Assembly: GCA_016183305.1 (NCBI GenBank)
Contig: JACPEW010000011.1
Coordinates: 2,020 to 66,019 of the forward strand
Length of the DNA stretch: 64,000 bases
Reading direction: 5' to 3'
DNA from: Candidatus Daviesbacteria bacterium
Lineage (GTDB): Bacteria; Patescibacteriota; Microgenomatia; Daviesbacterales; UBA10151
In this document: positions 23,397-33,539 of the stretch, one piece after another
How the letters are laid out: each line of letters opens with the position of its first letter
How positions within the stretch are numbered: the stretch's first letter is position 1
Program-made: the position numbers and the translations under genes
The notes under the pieces: model-generated
Databases searched by the model: none
What the model was told of the DNA's origin: nothing
The model's input: only the letters and a program-made list of their open reading frames with translations

Positions 23397-24512
23397 ATGG
23401 CAAAAAATAACGGTGTAACAACATTTACTTCTGAATCAGTCTGCGCCGGTCATCCGGATAAAATATGTGATGCAATATCTGATGCAATCGTTGATGCAGT
23501 TTTAACGCAAGATAGATTTGGCCATGTAGCCTGTGAGGTCTTGGCAGGATTTAATAGAGTAGTAATTTCCGGAGAAATTACGGCTAATGCTAGAGTAAAT
23601 TACGCGGATGTTGCTAGGCAACAAATAAAGAAATTGGGATATACAGATCCTAACTACAATTTTTCTGATAAATCTCCTGTCGAAGTCCATATTCATGAAC
23701 AATCCCCTGAAATTGGTGTAGGGGTTGATAAAAAAGGGGCAGGTGACCAGGGGATGATGTTTGGATATGCTTGCACAGAAACAACCTGCTTGATGCCGTT
23801 GCCTATTGCCATCGCTCATGCTCTAACCAAAAGAATGGATCAAGCCAGGGAAGAAAAAATAGTAAAATATTTAAGACCAGACGGAAAATCCCAAGTAACA
23901 ATTGAATATAGAGACGGAAAGCCTTATAAAGTAATTCAAGTTGTTATTGCTATTCCACACGAGGAATCTGTTAACTTAAATAAGGTTAAAGATGATATAT
24001 ACGAGTCAGTTGTTATACCTGTTTTAGATGTTTATGGATTTAAAATTAAGAAAGATCAGTTAATTGTCAATGGAACAGGGGTTTGGCATCATGGTGGTCC
24101 TGCTTCTGATTGTGGTTTAACAGGCAGAAAAATAGTGGTTGATGGATATGGTGGTTATGCCAGAGTTGGTGGAGGAGCATTTTCTGGAAAAGACCCAACA
24201 AAAGTAGATAGATCAGGAGCATATGCAGCAAGATTCCTGGCCAAAAATATTGTAGCTGCTAAATTAGCAGACAGGGCAGAAGTGAGACTGGCTTACTTTA
24301 TTGGAGCAAAAAAACCAACCATGCAGGATGTAGAAACCTTTGGGACCAACAAAAAATCTCATAAAGTAATACTTTCCTTCATGGAGAAGATCTTAGATAC
24401 CTCAGTGTCAGGAATATTAAAAGGTTTAGATTTACAAAGACCAATTTATTTACCAACAGCAGCTTATGGTCATTTTGGCAGAGAAGAATTCCCCTGGGAA
24501 AAAATAGTTTAG
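23397..24512 (+). CDS. metK: S-adenosylmethionine synthetase
   Basis: FTSESV..GHPDKICD, GAGDQGMMFGYA motifs. Confidence 0.95.
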   Translation: MAKNNGVTTFTSESVCAGHPDKICDAISDAIVDAVLTQDRFGHVACEVLAGFNRVVISGEITANARVNYADVARQQIKKLGYTDPNYNFSDKSPVEVHIHEQSPEIGVGVDKKGAGDQGMMFGYACTETTCLMPLPIAIAHALTKRMDQAREEKIVKYLRPDGKSQVTIEYRDGKPYKVIQVVIAIPHEESVNLNKVKDDIYESVVIPVLDVYGFKIKKDQLIVNGTGVWHHGGPASDCGLTGRKIVVDGYGGYARVGGGAFSGKDPTKVDRSGAYAARFLAKNIVAAKLADRAEVRLAYFIGAKKPTMQDVETFGTNKKSHKVILSFMEKILDTSVSGILKGLDLQRPIYLPTAAYGHFGREEFPWEKIV

Positions 24513-25297
24513 GAAAACTCCAAAATCATTGGTAAATGATCTGAGATAGGCATATCAGGTACTTGAAACTTCGTTACCTTGATATCAGAAGATACAAAAG
24601 TGTAATCAGCATACTTTTGAAAATTAGGTCCTCCATAAAAAGGGCTTAAATTACTTCTAGTTTTTCTGATATCAAATTCTCTAATTAAATTCCTCATATT
24701 TTTCCCGTAGATTTTAATGCTTTTAGTATCAGGTAATAAATTAAAATCCCCTACTAATAAAATTTTTGCCTCATTTTTTTGATCAATAATTTCTTTAACT
24801 TTCTGAGCTTCTTCTAAACGCTCAGGAGAATCTAGTTTATTGCCAGGCATAGGCCTGCCATGGAAATTAAAAATAACATATTGCTTATTGTTTATTTGAC
24901 AATTTATGAATTGTAAAGGAGTTGGTAAGTTAGAAAAATCTTCCTTTAACTTAGGAAAAGGCTGATCTTGAGAAACAATATAATTTGCTTGATAAGTAAT
25001 TTTTATTGAATTGTTAACCAAGATAGCTGATCCAGTAGTTGAATCAAAATTAATTGGATTTGCTTCATCGTCAAAGCTTTTGATTACAGGAAAATAAAAT
25101 ACTTGGAAATCAGGAAGAATTTGTTTGAACTCTGTTAATAAATTAGCCCTGATATTTCTATATTGTTTTACCTTTGATATAGTATCCTGCATTTCTTGAA
25201 AACAGAAAATATCAGTATTTAAAGATTGTTGTTTAATAAACTCAATAAGAGGTTTAAAGCATTTTCCACCCCAAGTATTAAGCGATATGAGTTTCAT
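24509..25297 (-). CDS. endonuclease/exonuclease/phosphatase (EEP, DNase I-like) family protein
   Basis: Starts MKLISLNTWGG; motifs FCFQEM, VGDFNLLPD, SDHLPMILEFS. The 641-aa ORF in the track is an artefactual read-through from the upstream recombinase/repeat. Confidence 0.75.
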   Translation of the reverse strand: MKLISLNTWGGKCFKPLIEFIKQQSLNTDIFCFQEMQDTISKVKQYRNIRANLLTEFKQILPDFQVFYFPVIKSFDDEANPINFDSTTGSAILVNNSIKITYQANYIVSQDQPFPKLKEDFSNLPTPLQFINCQINNKQYVIFNFHGRPMPGNKLDSPERLEEAQKVKEIIDQKNEAKILLVGDFNLLPDTKSIKIYGKNMRNLIREFDIRKTRSNLSPFYGGPNFQKYADYTFVSSDIKVTKFQVPDMPISDHLPMILEFS

Positions 25298-25332
25298 AAA
25301 TAGTATTCTAAGGATATGGGTGATAAAATACA

Positions 25333-25407
25333 ACGTGGTTACGGGGATTAGGTCACCGGTAGACCGCTCGAATGGGGTTCGAGAAGCAAAGAGTTCAATT
25401 CTCTTAT
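25333..25407 (+). tRNA. tRNA-Pro (anticodon GGG), CCA encoded
   Basis: Manual cloverleaf: acceptor CGGGGAT/ATCCCCG, D-stem GGTC/GACC, anticodon stem CTCGA/TCGAG with loop ATGGGGT (U33, GGG, G37), T-arm AAGAG-TTCAATT-CTCTT, discriminator A, CCA. Confidence 0.85.
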
Positions 25408-25513
25408 CCCCGACCAAGAGAGAAAAAGAGTCCGAAAAGGCGGAGGCGCTCCGTGCGTCGCCGCCCGCACGGAGCGCCGAGAAGCCCTTTTTATATTCTG
25501 CCGAGAGCTGCCG
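25402..25513 (+). repeat. att-like repeat copy 1 (tRNA 3' end CGACCA plus 105-bp segment with 13-bp GC hairpin)
   Basis: Near-identical inverted copy at 26959-27062 (1 mismatch); diverged direct copy at 28624-28729. Contains GGCGCTCCGTGCG-loop-CGCACGGAGCGCC. Confidence 0.8.
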
Positions 25514-26911
25514 ATTAGATAAAAAGAAGTTCGAGCCGACACGTTTTGCGAAGATTGCTAAATCTTCGCAATTATTTTTTGCGCGCGCGATTTTTTGCGC
25601 CTGTAAGGCGCAATTTACGAATTCTCTCATAGGTTCGAGCCAACTCGAACCAGTCTTTTCAACTTTGGCACTCTCTTCCTGTAATTTCAGTTTTGTTTCA
25701 AACAACTCGTTTTTCTTTTGTTTGTAGGTATCGGGGTCGACAACACTATCGAGAAAACTGTCTAAAAGTGTATTTTGTTTTCGGTCTACATCTTGAATTT
25801 CAGTTTTGAGATTTTGGATTGTTGTTTCTGATGATTGTTTTTCGGCTAACTCATCTCGCTCTAAAAATTTCAGCCAATGGTCAGCCCAGCTTTGAGGCAA
25901 TACCACATCAGAAACGACTTTTCTTATTTGATCTCCCATCTCAAAACCGGTGATTGGCGCTTGAGAACACGGACCAAGTTTCTTGGTGCAACGATAATAA
26001 ACGTAAGTACATTTACGATTTGTTGTTTTGTAAAATTTTGTATGCTGTTCGGCGGTGATCGCTGCCCCACATTCACTGCATCTAGCTAATCCCAAAAACG
26101 GAAAGCGGTATGATTTCTTGAAATGCTTAGTTCGCCTTTCCATTTCCTCTTGTACTTTCTGGAATAATTCTTTGGGAATAAAACACTTGTGATTTCCGTC
26201 ATGATACTCGTCGTTGTAAAACATAATACCGATATAAAACTTGTTTGAAAGTATCTGGCGGATTTCGTTGATATGCAGTGGTCTTCCGTTTTTGCGCTTC
26301 AGATCAAACTTGTAAACATATTTCGCAATATCCGTAAAAGTATGATTTCCTTCAGTAAACATTTCAAAAACTTTCTTTATTGCTTTTGACTTTTCTGGAT
26401 CGACGTCTATGCCTCTGGTTTTAGGATTGTTCACATACCCATAAGGGGCTTTTGCCGGTCAAACTCCGTTTCGTAGTTTTTGGCGCAAACCTCGTTTTAC
26501 GTTTTCGGAAAGATTGTCCACATAATATTTCGATTGGCCGAAGGCAATTGAAAGCATAAATTTACCTTGTGGTGTGTTTTCAAACCAAGAAGTTGGAAAT
26601 TTCAGGTCAAGTAGTTTGCCGGTATCGAGAAGATAAATAATTTTTCCGCCATCCATTGAGTTTCTGGCTAAACGATCGGGGTGCCATGCAACAATCCCGT
26701 TTGCGTGTCCCTTCTCGATTTTCTTCAGGACTTCGGCAAACTGCTCTCTTCCTGGCATTTTGGCGGTTTTTGCTTCCTCGACAAATTCGATAATCTCCAA
26801 ATGTTCTCGTTTGGCAAATTCTTTTAACTCGGCTATCTGGGCTTCGATAGATAAAATTTGCTTGTCTGCTTCGTCCCTCGATTTTCTGCAATACGCGATA
26901 TATTTTGTCAT
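25514..26911 (-). pseudogene. large serine recombinase interrupted by an in-frame TGA (26456-26458); 3' end runs into repeat copy 1 without a stop
   Basis: N-terminal catalytic domain (YCRKS..., DRLAR, VDNLSENVKRGL), in-frame TGA, then continuation PAKAPYGYVNN..., recombinase domain and Cys-rich zinc ribbon (CSECG...YYRCTKK), coiled-coil. TGA is used as a stop in rpsJ and rplD of this genome. Confidence 0.7.
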
Positions 26912-26958
26912 TTTGTTTTCTTCCTAAAATTTTTGCGTTTTATTTCCTTCTTTTTTTT

Positions 26959-27131
26959 CCGGCAGCTCTCGGCAGAATATAAAAAGGGCTTCTCGGCGCT
27001 CCGTGCGGGCGGCGACGCACGGAGCGCCTCCACCTTTTCGGACTCTTTTTCTCTCTTGGTCGAGATTTACGAAAAAGTTAGAACAGAATTTCGCAATTGT
27101 TAGCTCGGCCGCCTGCGGCGGCCTCGCTTCC
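26959..27131 (-). repeat. att-like repeat copy 2 (inverted; A-part plus B-part)
   Basis: 26959-27062 is the reverse complement of 25402-25513 including the cgaccaag junction. 27058-27131 is the reverse complement of 28557-28630 (1 mismatch). Confidence 0.8.
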
Positions 27132-27144
27132 TAACGTGTCAGCT

Positions 27145-27295
27145 CGAAAAGGATTTTGAGGCACAAAATCCTCAAAAAAAACGCAAAAATTTTAAAGAAC
27201 TTTTTTAAACTTCAAATGGCCGCCCCAGTTGAACTCAAACCCTTTCGGACTTGTCTGGGACGGCCATTAAAAAGCCGAAAGGGAAGTTTGAGTTC
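27145..27295 (-). ncRNA. candidate structured small RNA (promoter, nested stems/pseudoknot, terminator)
   Basis: Minus-strand TTGTAT-17-TATAGT promoter (27325-27330 / 27302-27307). Transcript predicted with stems AACUCAAAC/GUUUGAGUU, CUUUCGG/CCGAAAG and UGGCCGUCCCAG pairing with CUGGGGCGGCCA. Terminator GGAUUUUG-loop-CAAAAUCC+UUUUCG. Homologous to the region at 28740-28880. Confidence 0.4.
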
Positions 27296-27358
27296 AATTA
27301 CACTATATAAAATTTTCAAAATAAATACAACCATTGACTACTCAAAATTCCGGAAAAA

Positions 27359-27781
27359 ATGTATAATGAAATCAGAACTGTGGAGAAAAATTACTTGAAC
27401 AAGGAAATTTTAATTACTACTGATCCTCAGAAAATTCACTTCATTCTTCGTGCCGCCTACTTAGTAGCAAATCTAATAATAAATCAGGTTTTACGCAGTT
27501 TTACCTTTGCGCTTTCTCTCTTTGGCAAAGTGGAACCGAATATATACATTAATTTCATCATTGGGTTAGTTATAAGTGAGATAAGCTACAGAGTAGCCGT
27601 TAAAATTTACCAAACTAAATTTAACTTACTAAAAAACAAATTAGACAACGAACCTCCAGAAGGTGTTAAAATCATTCGGGGGTATTATGTGTTTCTTATT
27701 AATGCCTCTTTAGCAACGATTTTAAATTTTATTTTTTTCTTAGGCTATTTTATTTTCGTAAAATTAAATAGGGGAATATAA
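27359..27781 (+). CDS. hypothetical small membrane protein (2-3 predicted TM helices); start uncertain
   Basis: ORF in AT-rich cargo. Hydrophobic stretches LRAAYLVANLIINQVL, FIIGLVISEISY, ATILNFIFFLGYFIFV. Stop lies 3 nt before the next gene. Confidence 0.5.
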   Translation: MYNEIRTVEKNYLNKEILITTDPQKIHFILRAAYLVANLIINQVLRSFTFALSLFGKVEPNIYINFIIGLVISEISYRVAVKIYQTKFNLLKNKLDNEPPEGVKIIRGYYVFLINASLATILNFIFFLGYFIFVKLNRGI

Positions 27782-27783
27782 AT

Positions 27784-28509
27784 ATGAAATTAGTTTTTAA
27801 TGTAAATAGTATATTCAGTTATTTAGGCAAAAACAAAAAGGGAAACGCCACGGAACCAAATATCATTAAAGGTTTAGAACAAGTCGTCGGTAGTCTTGAA
27901 GAAATTAAGGATAATAATTTACGAAAAGAGCTAAAAAAGTATATTGAATTTTTTCACCCGGATGTACATGCACATGTATTGCTAGAATTTAACTTCCAAA
28001 ATAAGACATATTACTATTCTCATTTGATTTGGGGTGAGGATTTCTATATTAGCGAGTCTTTCATAGACTGTATTTCTATAAGCGATCAAACTTTTTTGAT
28101 TACAAATTCGTATATGGGTAGACTATTTTTGGAAAACCCTAGAAAAATTGCGGATTATTCATACGATGTACAAGTGTATGTCGAAGCAAAGGAAAACAGT
28201 AATACTATTCCACAAACAGTAGAGACTAAGTTGCAACTGTTTGGAATATATGATCTCGAAAAAGAGAGAAAAAGCGTTGAGGGTAATCTGAATAATTCGG
28301 GTAGTGATCCTTTATCAAAAGTGTCTTCGGCCATCTTTGGTAAAGTTACTAGCGAAACTGATCTTTTGCCTAAAGAGCCTACAATTGTGTTTTATTGGGA
28401 TAAAAACCAGAATAAGAAACTGTTAACTTACCAATTTACATCGAAGAACTTGGAGTATTTTGGGCAAGCCAATATTTTAGGCAATATAATAAAATTGTTT
28501 TCTCAGTAA
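27784..28509 (+). CDS. hypothetical protein (241 aa), no recognisable domain
   Basis: AGGGG SD 9 nt upstream; translationally coupled to the preceding ORF. AT-rich relative to flanks. Confidence 0.6.
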   Translation: MKLVFNVNSIFSYLGKNKKGNATEPNIIKGLEQVVGSLEEIKDNNLRKELKKYIEFFHPDVHAHVLLEFNFQNKTYYYSHLIWGEDFYISESFIDCISISDQTFLITNSYMGRLFLENPRKIADYSYDVQVYVEAKENSNTIPQTVETKLQLFGIYDLEKERKSVEGNLNNSGSDPLSKVSSAIFGKVTSETDLLPKEPTIVFYWDKNQNKKLLTYQFTSKNLEYFGQANILGNIIKLFSQ

Positions 28510-28556
28510 ATAAGCGATTGCTCCGCAATCGCAAAATCGCGCGCGCAAAAAATAAC

Positions 28557-28729
28557 GGAAGCGAGGCCGCCGCAGGCGGCCGAGCTAACAATTGCGAAAT
28601 TCGGTTCTAACTTTTTCGTAAATCTCGACCTGGAGAGACTTTTGGAATTTTGAGCCTGGATTGCTCTTTGCGGGAGGGGGCGCGCAGAGCTCTGAAAAGC
28701 CCTTTTTGTACGAGACTGCAAGTTGCCGG
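28557..28729 (+). repeat. att-like repeat copy 3 (B-part plus diverged A-part; putative attR)
   Basis: 28557-28630 is near-identical to the reverse complement of 27058-27131. From cgacc onward it is a diverged homolog of 25407-25513. Confidence 0.75.
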
Positions 28730-28739
28730 AGTGAAAAAG

Positions 28740-28880
28740 AGCAAAAAACGGAAGGTCGCGAAAATTTTTTAAAGAACTTTTTTTCAATAGTTTTAAACTT
28801 AAAAGGCGCAACCGGGGAACTCAACTTCAAATCGCTTCTAATTGTCCGGTTGCGCCATTTAAAAGAGCAATCCCATCCAA
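28740..28880 (-). terminator. terminator/3'UTR structure of LemA-TPM operon; homolog of sRNA-like module at 27145-27295
   Basis: 11-bp perfect stem GGCGCAACCGG/CCGGTTGCGCC followed on the minus strand by UUUUAAGUUU. Shares ttaaagaactttttt...aaactt...gaactcaa motifs with 27180-27240. Confidence 0.45.
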
Positions 28881-28901
28881 AGTAATAAATTAGATAAGAG
28901 A

Positions 28902-28979
28902 TTAGGGTATTCTTTCTTGTCCGTAGGATAATGCACCAATCAATCCTAAAATAACAACAATTATTAATACAATCTTCAT
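28902..28979 (-). CDS. small hydrophobic peptide (25 aa) MKIVLIIVVILGLIGALSYGQERIP
   Basis: AGAGGT SD 8 nt upstream; lies downstream of the TPM gene in the same orientation. Confidence 0.3.
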   Translation of the reverse strand: MKIVLIIVVILGLIGALSYGQERIP

Positions 28980-29031
28980 ATTTTTTACCTCTAGTTGCAG
29001 CACATGATGTTTAGGAAAATCTTGTCAATGG

Positions 29032-30075
29032 TTACCAACTACCACTAGCTCCACCTCCACCTGATCCGCCCCCTCCAAACCCACCACTACTGCCTGAGCC
29101 AAAAAAACCACCCCCAGTAATCCACCAATTTGTTGCTTTACCAGCTTTTTTAAGCTTATTATAATTTCTAGAAAGACGCCAATCTAATAATAACCCCAAA
29201 GCACCAAACACTACTGCACAAATTATACCCGTTTCTATTGATTTAACATAGAATCCCAACATAACTCCTAGAAAAAATCCTACTAAACCACCAAACCAGA
29301 TGTTTTTACTTCTAGCCAAAAACGAAAAAAAATAAATTACCGCTACCAAAACCGCTACCCCAATTACAATGAAAAACCCACCACTGATGAGATAATAACT
29401 TCCGTATAATGCCAGCAATATAAACATTAGTAAGACTGCAAGTATTTTGGATTTTGGTGTAGCTTTTTTAAGTATAGACCTCCATACAAAAACAACAATT
29501 ACAATAAGCGCTCCTATAGAACCCAAACCTCTGAGGATATTATCAACTGCATGATAGGAACTTTGAGAAGAAGATTCTTGAGGATTTCCTATCCGATTTT
29601 GTATGGCGGTAACTCCGTTAGTAATCCCCTGATAATAATTTTCCTTTTTGAATTCTGGTGCTATGATATTCCTAATAATTTCTCCTGCCTGACTATCGGT
29701 GATACTTGACTCTAAACCATAACCTACCTCAATTCTCATCTTCCTGTCATCTATCGCTGCTAAAAATAAGATGCCATTATCTCTTGCCTTTTTACCCATT
29801 TTCCATTCTTCAAAAGTCCTAACAGTAAAATCAGTTATGTCTTGACCATTCAGACTTTGTACAGTAGCAACAGCGATCTCATTTGTGGTTCGTTGCCCGT
29901 AGTCCTTCAATATGTTCTCTAAAGTGTTTTTTTGATCAGAGGTTAAAACACCAGCAAAGTCATTGACATAACCAATAGGGGCAGGGATGTGATTTGCATA
30001 AACACCAGTACCAAAGAAAAATAATAAAACTACAGAGAGAATAACGGTAATGAGGTTACGGATAGCATTTGTCAT
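29032..30075 (-). CDS. TPM-domain (YgcG-like) membrane protein with Gly-rich C-terminal tail
   Basis: The N-terminal signal/TM, YVNDFAGVL...ILFLAAIDDRKMRIEVGYGLE and C-terminal TM helices plus GGGSGGGG tail resemble TPM/YgcG family proteins. Confidence 0.8.
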   Translation of the reverse strand: MTNAIRNLITVILSVVLLFFFGTGVYANHIPAPIGYVNDFAGVLTSDQKNTLENILKDYGQRTTNEIAVATVQSLNGQDITDFTVRTFEEWKMGKKARDNGILFLAAIDDRKMRIEVGYGLESSITDSQAGEIIRNIIAPEFKKENYYQGITNGVTAIQNRIGNPQESSSQSSYHAVDNILRGLGSIGALIVIVVFVWRSILKKATPKSKILAVLLMFILLALYGSYYLISGGFFIVIGVAVLVAVIYFFSFLARSKNIWFGGLVGFFLGVMLGFYVKSIETGIICAVVFGALGLLLDWRLSRNYNKLKKAGKATNWWITGGGFFGSGSSGGFGGGGSGGGGASGSW

Positions 30076-30078
30076 TCA

Positions 30079-30651
30079 TTATGGAAACTGTACTTTGGGC
30101 ACGTTTTCGCTATCTTGAACAGATTGGAAATAAGTTTTAGTTGAGAAGCCAAAAACCCCAGCAAAAAGTTTACCAGGCAATGTTGTAGCTGAAGTGTTGT
30201 ATTGCTGAACAAGCTCATTATACCTCCGTCTTTCGACGGCTATCCTATTTTCTGTACCAGCTAATTCATCTTGCAGCTTCAAAACAGCTTGATCGCTTTT
30301 TATCTGAGGATAATTTTCAAAAACAGCAAAAAGTCGAGACAATGTGCCTTCCAGTTGGTTAGCTGCTTGTACTTTGGTCTCCGGGGTTTGAGCGCCAGCA
30401 TACTGAATCCTTGCTGCATTCACATCGCCAAATATTTTTTGCTCTTGTTTTTGTAACCCTTTAACTGATTCTACCAAGTTGGGGATTAAATCATATCTTC
30501 TTTGATATTGAACTTCAACTTGTTTCCATTGACCTTCAATAGCATTAGTCTGAATAATAAAGGAATTGTAGTAACCTACAGAAGCAATGATTAAAACAAC
30601 TATAACAGCAACTATTCCAACCACCGTAGTTAACGTAAACGGAAGTTTCAT
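30079..30651 (-). CDS. LemA family protein
   Basis: N-terminal TM plus YNSFIIQTNAIEGQWKQVEVQYQRRYDLIPNLV is a typical LemA pattern. LemA-TPM is a common pair. Confidence 0.8.
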   Translation of the reverse strand: MKLPFTLTTVVGIVAVIVVLIIASVGYYNSFIIQTNAIEGQWKQVEVQYQRRYDLIPNLVESVKGLQKQEQKIFGDVNAARIQYAGAQTPETKVQAANQLEGTLSRLFAVFENYPQIKSDQAVLKLQDELAGTENRIAVERRRYNELVQQYNTSATTLPGKLFAGVFGFSTKTYFQSVQDSENVPKVQFP

Positions 30652-31062
30652 CTGATTTTAGTATGGAGAATAAAAGACCTATTGTCAAGCAGAATTCTCT
30701 CTCCTGGCTAAGCTTAAATATCAATATAGCCAGAATGGTAGAAATTGGCCAATTGTTTCCAACCTCTTTAAATTTTCTGTATAGTACGGGGAGTAATAAG
30801 TTTTTGCGCATAGGTTGGGTGGGGCAAGAAAACATTAAATTGTTTTTGTGTTCCTGTCCCGCAACAGCGGGACTATAAGTAATAAGCAAAGCTTGCCTTT
30901 TGCCTTCGGCAAAACGTAAAAATCGCGCGCATTCTGTCTTTGTCTTTGCAAAAAATACATAGAGCGGGGCCGGAGGCCGAGCAGATGGAGTGGCGCGCCT
31001 ACCGGTTCGATTTAAAGCAAGTTCGGATTTTTCGATAAAGGTCGACATAATTTTTGGGGACT

Positions 31063-31093
31063 TGACCTTTGGGAAATATTTGGTAGTATAATT
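31063..31093 (+). promoter_or_regulatory. putative sigma70-type promoter for recA (TTGACC-N19-TATAAT), -10 ending 7 nt before the ATG (near-leaderless)
   Basis: Sequence motifs only. Confidence 0.3.
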
Positions 31094-31100
31094 AATAACT

Positions 31101-33539
31101 ATGGCTCAAAATAACTCCAGTAATAATGAAGCCAAAAAAGCTGCAATCTCTGCAGCAATGGCTCAAATCCAAAAACAATATGGTACAGGTTCTATTATGC
31201 GTCTTGGTGAACGCGTTGAAAAATTTGCTACAGATACTATTCCAACTGGTTCTATTGCCTTAGATTTAGCCTTGGGTGTTGGCGGTCTCCCCAAAGGCAG
31301 GATTATTGAGATTTATGGACCTGAAGCTGGCGGAAAATGCGTTACAACAGATACTGTAGTATTTACAGAATATGGTATGGTACCAATTGGTTTTTTAGGC
31401 GATCTCAATCAGAAGGGGTTTCAACCAAAGGAAATAAAGGTATATTCGGAAGGTGGGTTTGCCTATACAAGCCACTTTTATAATAGTGGAGTACAAAAAA
31501 CTATTAAAATAAAGACTTCCTATGGTTTTGAATTAGAAGGTACACCAAATCACAGAGTTCGTGTTTTGGATAATCAGGGAGAGTATATTTGGCGGCGGCT
31601 TGATCAATTAAAGATTGATGACAGTATTGCTATCCAAAGAGGGCAATATTGTTTTGGTTCAGGAGCTGATTTATCAAACTTTGGATATATAAAAAACAAA
31701 AACAACAGTCGTGGTAAAGATTTTAATCCCCCGTCTGTTCTTACATCTGATTTAGCAAGGCTAATGGGTTATCTAGTTGGTGATGGTACTTGTACGTCAG
31801 GGGGTTTTAATAAAAATGACATCCAGATTACTATTGCAGACGATGAAATAGCTGAAGATTTTTCAAATCTTTGTCTGCGTATTTTTGGAGAAACTCCGAA
31901 AATAACTTTAGATAAGCGTACTAAAAATACACAAAACTTCAGAATTCATAATGCAAAGGCGCGAGTTTTTCTAGCATATGCTGGTTTAGATTATGTTAGC
32001 GCTGAAGGAAAAGAGATTCCTTATTCAGTAATGCAAGGCTCGCAGACAATAGTAGCTAACTTTTTGTCAGCATTGTTCGAGACTGATGGTTGTTTTAGTA
32101 CTAATACTATTGAGTATTATACAAAATCTATAGAACTTATTAAGCAGCTGCAGCTTGTTTTGTTGAATTTCGGTATAGTTTCGAGAATTAAACCTAGACA
32201 AATTAAGAATTATCCAGGTAATACTTATTATTATTTATATATAGATGGAATTAATGATCAAAAAATCTTCTATAAGGAGATAGGATTTATATCCAAGAGA
32301 AAGAATGAAAAACTTCTTTTTTATATCCAACGGGAGCGTCAATATCAAAGCAACAGGGACACAGTTCCTTTTATAAATCATAAGATTGATGAATTGATGA
32401 AAGATTATAGAATTTCTCTAGGCAGTAGTACCAGACAGCATTGGGATGCGGTATATGATTATCGATCTGCTACTCCTGGTCATTCTTCCTTGACTTACCC
32501 CAGATTAAATAAAATTTTAAACATTTTCCAACCGGTAGAAAAATTATCCGTATACCAGGAGTTAAAAGAAATATTTTTGCGGAATATTTTTTGGGATAAG
32601 ATAGTAGAAATGCAACCTTCCAAGTCATTGGTAGTTGATTTTACAGTGCCGGAAACATTATCTTTTTTTGGAAGTGGTTTTATTAATCATAATACTACAG
32701 TGGCCCTTCATGTTATAGCTGAAGCTCAAAAAAAAGGCGGGGTAGCAGCTTTTATTGATGCAGAACATGCTTTAGACCCGCAAAGAGCTCAAAAGATTGG
32801 AGTAAATTTAGATGATTTGCTTATTTCTCAACCAGACACAGGTGAGCAGGGTTTGGAAATTGCAGAAAGTTTAATCCGGTCTGGTGGGATTGATGTGTTA
32901 GTCATAGATTCTGTAGCAGCATTAGTTCCTAGGTCAGAACTGGAAGGAGAGATGGGAGATTCTTCCATGGGTGTGCAAGCCCGTTTGATGTCTCAAGCCT
33001 TAAGGAAGTTAACTGGAGCAGTTTCTAATACCAATACCATTGTTATTTTCACAAATCAGTTAAGACAAAAAATTGGAGTGATGTTTGGTAATCCGGAAAC
33101 AACTACCGGAGGATTAGCCCTGAAATTTTATTCATCAATAAGATTGGATGTCAGAAAAATTGAGAATATAAAGGATGGGGATTTGGTGGTGGGTTCAAGG
33201 CACAGAGTTAAAGTAGTAAAAAATAAAGTCGCTCCCCCATTCAGGATTGCTGAATTTGATATGGATGAAAATGGTATTTCACATGAAGGAGAGCTTTTAG
33301 ATGTAGGAATTGAGCTAGGAATCTTGACTAAATCAGGTGCTTTTATTAAATGGAAGGAAAAGTTATTAGGCCAGGGCAGAGCTGCATCTGCTGCTTACTT
33401 AAAAGAGAATAAAAAAGAGGCTGAAAAATTAGAAAAAGAGATTAGAGATGCTTGGACTAAGCAAAAAGAAGGCAAAGAAAAAATCGTAGTTGGTCAAGAA
33501 GAAGAAACTTCAGCAGGTGCTTTAGAAGAAGCGGTTTAA
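31101..33539 (+). CDS. recA: recombinase RecA containing a 452-aa intein with LAGLIDADG homing-endonuclease domain
   Basis: N-extein ends GPEAGGK. Intein starts at Cys (CVTTDTVVF) and ends HN before TTVALHV. Spliced product restores the P-loop [23 protein letters not shown]. Two LAGLIDADG blocks ([22 protein letters not shown]). Confidence 0.9.
31338..32693 (+). mobile_element. RecA intein (P-loop insertion) with LAGLIDADG endonuclease
   Basis: Cys1 ... His-Asn / Thr+1 boundaries; Hint blocks plus double LAGLIDADG. Confidence 0.85.

Follow-up and report, generated by a model that had tools for sequence, protein, structure and literature searches.

A probable recent nonsense mutation in a large serine recombinase gene lodged at a tRNA-Pro 3′ end in Candidatus Daviesbacteria

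To our knowledge, the characterised phage large serine recombinases (LSRs) use protein-coding or intergenic sites. In the transposons Tn4451 and Tn5397 the LSRs TnpX and TndX are each the sole mobility gene, and a separate directionality factor is unneeded. As to tRNA genes (tDNAs), only tyrosine integrases are stated as known to target them, and serine integrases are not (PMC4383910). Here we examine an LSR gene with an in-frame TGA, on the minus strand (25417..26911) of a 64,000-nt stretch of Candidatus Daviesbacteria DNA (contig JACPEW010000011.1; the whole stretch is called the window, and coordinates refer to it). We consider it highly probable that the locus as a whole is best explained as a nonsense-mutated copy of an LSR family widespread in bacteria of the candidate phyla radiation (CPR), the recombinase being the sole gene of a unit at a tRNA-Pro 3′ end. 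In the literature on serine recombinases at tRNA genes or in CPR bacteria, we found no description of this family.

The recombinase gene is divided by the stop as follows.

26462..26911, minus strand: recombinase codons 1-150, the serine-recombinase catalytic domain, with its ATG at 26911 and R9 and S11 in YCRKSRDE
26459..26461, minus strand: in-frame TGA at codon 151, next base C, replacing a conserved Trp codon (TGG)
25417..26458, minus strand: remaining recombinase frame, comprising the recombinase domain, zinc ribbon, a presumed coiled-coil region and the C-terminal tail (from Pfam and collinear alignment)

An earlier note on this DNA had put the TGA at 26456-26458, which is in fact the next codon, CCG (Pro152); the three-base offset arose because the end coordinate in the table of open reading frames (ORFs) includes the stop. 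The note's observation that the two halves share a frame and are split by the TGA alone is borne out. From the ATG at 26911 to the GTG further down at 26434 the distance is 477 nt, or 159 codons, which puts both in one frame, and the window sequence has no second stop and no frameshift between the TGA and the tRNA junction. The 150-aa ORF, deposited at NCBI as MBI2314879.1, matches Pfam Resolvase (PF00239; residues 5-149, E 3.6e-23). Downstream of the TGA, Pfam finds the Recombinase domain (PF07508; E 4.4e-15) and Zn_ribbon_recom (PF13408; 27.2 bits against a cut-off of 25.3, E 5.2e-06), and the recombinase tail crosses the repeat called R1 below as far as the tRNA junction (...SFSLLVG). Collinearity of the halves, which the note had proposed as a check, was found in an alignment to full-length homologues (59-87% identity) that is free of gaps at the junction. 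Invariant in this alignment are R9, S11, D79, R80 and R83 of the catalytic domain and the zinc-ribbon cysteines C278, C281, C308 and C315; in sequence alignment to SprA of phage SPbeta, the match reaches through residues 350-416, the putative coiled-coil region of the zinc ribbon. By its content of catalytic, recombinase and zinc-ribbon domains the gene is an LSR family member whose frame is interrupted; by the alignments to homologues and to SprA, its two halves are collinear parts of one LSR and the lost residue is a Trp. Over 25622-26982 (1361 nt), TGA included, the window is matched at 100% identity by an independent Logan assembly of run SRR12113428.

When the fused protein, with X at the stop, was used as a BLASTP query, it returned thousands of full-length homologues, nearly all from Patescibacteria/CPR and the best at 90% identity. 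In the codon-151 column of 18 aligned homologues, W stands in 17 and Y in one, within ...LRNGVWPAKAPYGY..., and in the 90% cluster to which the fragment itself belongs, each of the five members extending as far as codon 151 has W there. The Trp in GKWISGLAPYGY of SprA (9dxh, E 2.8e-14, the closest solved structure) also aligns to codon 151. The residue belongs to a conserved G-x-W-(x)4-P-Y-G-Y linker joining the catalytic and recombinase domains (here GVW-PAKAPYGY); of the earlier expectation that Gly or Trp precedes PYGY, the Trp part was right and the Gly part wrong. Counting this one, the Trp-position codons of the gene are five TGG and one TGA. Selenocysteine at the TGA was set aside, the position being a conserved Trp. 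That the host uses TGA as a stop, noted before for rpsJ and rplD, extends beyond S10 and L4 to L29, S5, SecY and Adk; Pfam coverage is complete in all six, ATGA start/stop overlaps occur in three, and 12 of the 52 long ORFs in the window terminate with TGA.

We read the TGA as a recent one-base G-to-A transition (Trp151, TGG to TGA), a probable nonsense mutation rather than recoding or a conserved read-through site, because the Trp is conserved, no lesion recurs at codon 151, stops in other copies are scattered and the host terminates genes with TGA. JGI metagenome contigs were scanned with a degenerate DNA pattern of the codon context: written with TGA at codon 151 it matched nowhere, written with TGG it matched at least 120 times. 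In species-representative genomes, 75 of 80 recombinase genes are intact, three have stops (one TGA at R330, two TAA) and two have frameshifts. Among the metagenome loci, 7 of 120 carry stops, namely TAA at K416 (twice), TGA at W76, TAG at E46 (twice), TAA at Q126 and TAG at I320. Damaged copies thus make up ~12 of 200 related loci (~6%), with scattered lesions that use all three stop codons and, in these 200 loci, no other lesion at W151, a pattern that looks like ordinary decay. Measured against relatives L002, L003 and L004, the ratio of nonsynonymous to synonymous substitution rates (dN/dS) lies at 0.04-0.05 for the whole gene and at 0.04-0.07 for the part after the TGA, the range also seen between intact pairs; with dS to the closest relatives saturated (~1.2), the ratio is blind to recent relaxation and shows no more than that the lesion is recent. 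The window gene has eight unique substitutions, where nine of ten intact close relatives have 2-8 and the tenth (P0019) has 22. Recent pseudogenisation, one of three explanations offered earlier, is supported by a conserved Trp one transition away from TGA and by a downstream dN/dS like that of intact relatives. Since the host uses code 11, translation should end after the 150-residue catalytic domain; because the 150-aa fragment is without the DNA-binding domains, this copy is probably a very recent pseudogene, at best strongly attenuated.

Several points weigh against this reading. All eight window-specific substitutions lie downstream of the stop and none upstream (P about 0.04-0.17, not significant), and the wholly intact downstream frame could mean either that inactivation is very recent or that read-through keeps the gene under weak selection. 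UGA-C is a poor termination context, as in the prfB frameshift site (CUU UGA C). A TGG/TGA polymorphism within the population is also conceivable, the allele being known from assemblies, and the Logan contig may share reads with the metagenome-assembled genome (MAG).

The alternative that survives best is leaky or programmed read-through, in which tRNA-Trp(CCA) would decode the TGA as Trp at a useful frequency and the stop would serve to hold down expression of the element. Near-cognate decoding would give the wild-type protein, as the stop falls exactly on the Trp codon, and UGA is the leakiest stop, misread by tRNA-Trp in Escherichia coli and Bacillus subtilis, here in the weak +4 C context (PMC5289835). 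The +4 context modulates UGA misreading, and +4C raises read-through in yeast (PMC5289835); the next base is T or A, never C, after the six host TGA stops checked, whereas it is C after the recombinase TGA. The intact downstream frame and its low dN/dS are also in favour, but saturation of dS takes much from the latter. Against read-through, the codon is not conserved, given the metagenome counts above and W in all close homologues; the stretch of 92 nt beginning at the stop codon is no more stably folded than its shuffled versions (z = 0.04), with no sign of a stimulatory RNA structure; and other family copies have ordinary nonsense mutations of three kinds. We therefore judge read-through at a useful frequency unlikely, and the programmed form that the earlier note had listed finds no backing in either the counts or the fold. 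Rare misreading of UGA-C by tRNA-Trp may occur and would restore the native residue in a little full-length protein, with no sign of selection for it.

We give still less credence to the idea that the population sequence is in truth TGG and that the TGA is a minority allele or an error of sequencing, assembly or consensus. The allele is known from one MAG and one sequencing run, and a single base separates TGG from TGA; set against this, the NCBI MAG and the Logan assembly come from different pipelines and agree at 100% identity over the 1361 nt, and the site lies in neither a homopolymer nor a repeat.

An origin or expression in a lineage or phage with TGA as a sense codon (Trp in code 4, Gly in code 25), raised earlier because some CPR bacteria (Absconditabacteria, Gracilibacteria) read UGA as Gly and compatible, under code 4, with a TGA at a Trp position, is in effect refuted for host and gene: the residue is Trp and not Gly; of six Trp codons a single one is TGA, the codon that AT-rich code-4 genomes favour; the 59-87%-identity homologues in code-11 CPR genomes all use TGG; 75 of 80 genomic loci have no in-frame TGA; the host has its six TGA stops; and ARAGORN finds no suppressor tRNA in the 64-kb window.

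Returning to the nonsense-mutated gene, we considered how its frame ends and what surrounds it. The features flanking the recombinase are listed here.

24509..25297, minus strand: host endonuclease/exonuclease/phosphatase (EEP) gene, outside the element (Pfam PF03372)
25342..25416, plus strand: tRNA-Pro(GGG), the insertion target (ARAGORN, Rfam RF00005), with CCA at 25414-25416
25411..25513, no strand assigned: arm R1, in which CGACCA, the final 6 nt of the tRNA, is joined to a 97-nt module that has a GC hairpin and resembles a terminator; the minus strand of R1 encodes the recombinase tail
26925..26945, no strand assigned: a′ motif in the recombinase 5′ untranslated region (UTR), inverted-repeat partner of 27174-27194 (21 nt, 95%)
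26960..27062, no strand assigned: arm R2, inverted copy of R1, 49-151 nt upstream of the recombinase ATG
27174..27194, no strand assigned: a motif, marking roughly the distal limit of the 1.78-kb recombinase unit

The recombinase frame stays open through R1, the antisense strand of tRNA-Pro(GGG) and a 44-nt spacer into the EEP frame, which yields a 641-aa ORF (24509-26434). The earlier note had called this fusion an artefact, and rightly so: EEP has its own conserved start at 25297 (MKLISLNTWGG), the gene is also present at the empty site of sister-species locus L202 (see below), and in the syntenic relative L004 the recombinase ORF ends 82 nt into the tRNA and the EEP ortholog begins later at its own ATG. 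The fusion is accidental, in that no stop happens to intervene. The note's remark that the ORF lacks a stop of its own also stands as an observation; as a defect of this particular copy it does not, since the relatives behave alike. Adjacency to a tRNA could be tested in 148 of 201 related loci, those with at least 100 nt beyond the protein tail. In 120 of the 148 a convergent tRNA begins exactly at the end of the tail (...LLVG), and in 117 of these 120 the recombinase ORF is still open on entering the antisense tRNA. The absence of an own stop is a family trait, and odd C-termini in databases (GIEPT, RIELA etc.) result because the antisense tRNA is translated. Gene callers routinely mis-annotate such ORFs, with antisense-tRNA tails or with fusions like the 641-aa ORF.

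tRNA-Pro(GGG) is the only tRNA gene that ARAGORN finds in the window, and an Rfam search gave no match besides the tRNA. The target tRNAs at the 120 loci represent 14 amino-acid specificities, and the identity of the tRNA goes with the recombinase subclade (Pro in the clade of the window; Lys, Gln, Arg and others elsewhere). Elements that are close relatives are found at different tRNAs with common last six bases (Leu/Tyr, Leu/Ala, Glu/Lys and Trp/Glu). Such pairs are homologous over 1.7-1.9 kb; one limit lies 230-390 nt before the ATG, the other a few bases into the tRNA. L014/L015, L059/L061 and L080/L081 each have 1.7-1.9 kb in common, ending in the tRNA, and L080/L081 have a 22-nt pair equivalent to a and a′. 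With limits deduced in this way from one subfamily located at different tRNAs, the recombinase appears to be the only gene of a ~1.78-kb unit, 25415 to ~27194, at the tRNA-Pro(GGG) 3′ end. An element comprising just R1 to R2, with a 206-bp palindromic attP, was rejected because units at different tRNAs have 170-290 nt more beyond R2 in common. The family has at least 585 loci in species-representative genomes.

The insertion itself can be seen by comparison with empty sites in sister Daviesbacteria species, where tRNA-Pro(GGG) is followed by recA after 72 nt (L202) or 64 nt (L203). L202, in which MetK is 92% identical to that of the window, keeps metK-EEP upstream of the tRNA; L203 has other genes instead of EEP. 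Homology between the window and L202 ends at 25414, in the last bases of the tRNA, and restarts at 31052, which is why we assign to the window a 5.6-kb island that extends well past the recombinase unit.

The arms R1 and R2 are identical at 102 of 103 bases. Of 84 testable loci, 63 have an inverted repeat that is 70 nt or longer with arms 97% or more identical, and in 39 the repeat is perfect; because the arms are near-identical within loci while R differs between loci, they evolve in concert. The earlier note had seen the repeats; it had missed both the tRNA 3′-end location and the conservation of the repeat architecture. The predicted RNA fold of R is a GC-rich hairpin with U-runs on both strands (z = -3.4), and R is plausibly a bidirectional terminator that also supplies the new 3′ flank of the tRNA. 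A scan for sigma-70 promoters gave no match above chance.

The recombinase segment has one prevailing orientation. In 124 assemblies, 120 loci are convergent with the tRNA and only four contigs, all truncated, have a co-directional tRNA. Frequent flipping of this segment is unsupported by these numbers, and one of the four, L181 with L140, shows a simple tRNA/R-rec-X/host arrangement, not a flip. Both orientations were observed for cargo in a P0117 relative, in which the element is arranged like that of the window. L205 (412-1957) and L208 (459-2004) have an identical recombinase (P0117) on contigs otherwise 99.7-99.9% identical, and a 1.35-kb cargo segment with an MFS transporter gene, between 97-nt inverted repeats, is inverted between them. 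Four marker differences in the arms indicate that the exchange was non-reciprocal, which points to gene conversion or repeated flips and not one fixed crossover. We found no further cargo inversions in P0067, P0094 or P0073, and no circular forms (0 of 36 short contigs with terminal overlaps).

Within the conserved C-terminal region of the recombinase, codons NNCEDLAIFAK (25546-25571) contain a perfect palindrome with a 10-bp stem, TTGCGAAGAT ttagca ATCTTCGCAA. It is preserved by paired codon changes, E-D...I-F in the window corresponding to E-E...F-F in homologues, and the remnants S2 and S3 listed below are broken exactly at the palindrome, with GC-rich hairpin insertions.

Beyond the recombinase unit, the island is composite.

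25415..31046, no strand assigned: the composite island, 5.6 kb, at the tRNA-Pro 3′ end and absent from the sister species
27050..27131, minus strand: S2, a tRNA-3′-end mimic resembling the recombinase 3′ end (X2; GSNFFVNLD, ending CGACCA), with a GC hairpin
27359..28509, plus strand: two cargo ORFs (140 and 241 aa) without a match to any family, bracketed by the inverted repeats S2 and S3
28533..28638, plus strand: S3, a recombinase 3′-end remnant (QKIARAKNN, GC hairpin, NCE, X3), the right cargo arm
28631..28790, plus strand: R3 (~70% like R1/R2) with a recombinase 5′ UTR remnant (a″, AAAGAAC), direct repeat D2
30919..31046, plus strand: S4, a degenerate recombinase 3′ remnant with GC hairpins and X4 (AGTTCGGATTTTTCGATAAAGGTCGAC), the right edge of the island, abutting native recA-upstream DNA

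S2 forms the left arm of the cargo inverted repeat (82 nt, 96%; 27050-27131 against 28557-28638) and is 90-96% conserved in L004. Recombinase 5′ UTR remnants lie at 27174-27215 and 28755-28790, and the R3 segment is a relic of an older insertion. The remnants of recombinase 3′ ends (S2, S3) and those of 5′ UTRs show that insertion at this tRNA has been repeated. At the right edge, X4 (31020-31046) ends in GGTCGAC, against CCCCGAC at the tRNA end, and has the T-loop-like GTTCGGA; it is a loose mimic of a tRNA 3′ fragment.

The X sequences at 27062-27090, 28605-28630 and 31020-31046, as well as the recombinase codons VGSNFF (~25528-25545), all resemble a tRNA T-loop (GGTTCGAA-like) to which the final 5-6 nt of the target tRNA are joined; the recombinase gene would in effect close with a mimic of a tRNA 3′ half. 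Two direct copies of a hairpin region, at 27200-27300 and 28790-28880 on the plus strand, each come after a recombinase 5′ UTR remnant; their stems are GGCCGCCCCAG...CTGGGACGGCC and GGCGCAACCGG...CCGGTTGCGCC, with similar loops containing GAACTCAA. In L004 (1206-2801) there is a second LSR gene, 31-45% identical, the 3′ end of which overlaps the distal inverted-repeat arm of the cargo module (X and hairpin). The island of the window further holds a TPM-domain gene (29032-30075) and a LemA gene (30079-30657), both on the minus strand and absent from the tRNA-Pro/recA interval of the sister species; they are either cargo or were brought there by rearrangement.

At L006, L008 and L213, the block of tRNA-Pro(GGG) and recombinase is inverted relative to recA (rec -> / <- tRNA / recA ->), unlike the window and the empty site, where tRNA and recA are co-oriented, which hints at larger inversions, one end of each falling at the attachment site. 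The host recA itself (31092-33539, plus strand) encodes 815 aa and has an intein with a LAGLIDADG homing endonuclease (Pfam RecA, Intein_splicing, LAGLIDADG_3); recA of L202 and L203 is without this 1.37-kb insert (window 31337-32704).

Sequence comparison thus documents, for this element or its family, insertion at tRNA 3′ ends, movement between tRNAs, accretion, reading frames open across the junction, repeats kept in concert and one natural cargo inversion. A mechanism compatible with these would have the LSR recombine an attP on the element with an attB formed by the tRNA 3′ end, and so integrate the element. The favoured attP candidate is a tRNA-end mimic followed by R (X-NACCA/R), which in the window would be X2 of S2 with R2. 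We favour it because of the right edge, where X4-GAC meets native DNA, because of the simple tRNA/R-rec-X-CCA/host arrangement in L181 and L140, and because of the S3 and S4 relics. R would then give the tRNA a new CCA and a terminator, and the inverted repeats would be kept alike by repeated inversion or gene conversion. An alternative attP would be the junction of the two ends of the unit, which fits because units at different tRNAs have a stretch from the a motif to the tRNA in common. As for the upstream inverted copy of the junction (R2), a tRNA is found on that side in only the four truncated assemblies out of 124.

The TGA is in itself routine, and we see no evidence for an alternative code or recoding in this Daviesbacteria genome. 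The family to which the interrupted gene belongs is of wider interest, since it places serine recombinases at tRNA 3′ ends, a niche thought reserved for tyrosine integrases, and does so in CPR bacteria, in which mobile elements are poorly known. Our fullest account, which we hold to be about evenly balanced between right and wrong in its entirety, would be of an undescribed, CPR-wide family of LSR-only mini-elements of ~1.7-1.9 kb at the 3′ ends of tRNAs (at least 14 specificities) that rebuild the tRNA end and terminator, have their frame closed by target DNA, contain ~100-nt inverted repeats and invert cargo, with the window copy possibly active at a low level through UGA-C read-through. Subfamilies tied to particular tRNA ends, in tiny units apparently without an accessory gene, could be compact, naturally retargeted integrases for genome engineering, and the family could mark island accretion and inversion-based variation in reduced genomes.

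How does the locus compare with known systems? As far as the stop is concerned, it is like grounded prophage integrases and insertion sequence (IS) elements, which show a single premature stop in an otherwise intact recombinase gene, with no essential difference. With the LSRs of phages (SPbeta SprA/YokA, phiC31, Bxb1, A118/LI, TP901-1) it shares the Resolvase-Recombinase-zinc ribbon order, probably with a coiled-coil insert, and a gene at the very edge of the integrated DNA; the alignment to SprA, the best solved-structure match, covers residues 2-416 and takes in the Trp of G-x-W...PYGY. It differs from them in its tRNA 3′-end target, in a size of ~1.8 kb, free of phage genes and of any recognisable directionality factor, in an ORF without its own stop and in the ~100-nt inverted repeats around the gene. 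The TnpX/TndX transposons likewise have an LSR as sole mobility gene; unlike the present element, they have resistance or conjugation cargo and GA-dinucleotide-centred sites, without tRNA 3′-end targeting or long inverted repeats.

Serine invertases (Hin/hix, Gin/gix, Cin, Pin) are similar in that the recombinase lies in or beside DNA bounded by inverted repeats and, as regards the related P0117 loci, in that both cargo orientations occur. However, they are small proteins of ~190 aa with a C-terminal helix-turn-helix (HTH), whereas the enzyme here is an LSR of ~500 aa; their sites are of 26 bp, whereas the repeats here are of ~100 nt and arm exchange looks like gene conversion; and the recombinase segment here keeps one orientation (120 loci against four ambiguous ones).

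The tRNA islands of tyrosine integrases (Islander, SSV1-type) come closest in their relation to the target. They too insert at tRNA 3′ ends and restore the terminal nucleotides from the element, have the integrase gene beside the tRNA and a tRNA-3′-like fragment (for which X is the candidate here) at the far end, and pile up by successive insertion at one tRNA. The SSV1 type, with attP inside the integrase gene, is also alike in that the frame crosses the attachment junction and the C-terminus differs between the integrated and free forms. The differences are that X is a loose mimic here (a T-loop-like GGTTCGAA plus the last 5-6 nt) and not an exact copy, that the element retains a second, inverted version of the junction internally, and that the enzyme is a serine recombinase, where the Islander catalogue is of the tyrosine family. 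Judged from its sequence, the unit at tRNA-Pro(GGG) thus appears to be an integrative element that combines serine recombinase chemistry with tRNA-gene targeting.

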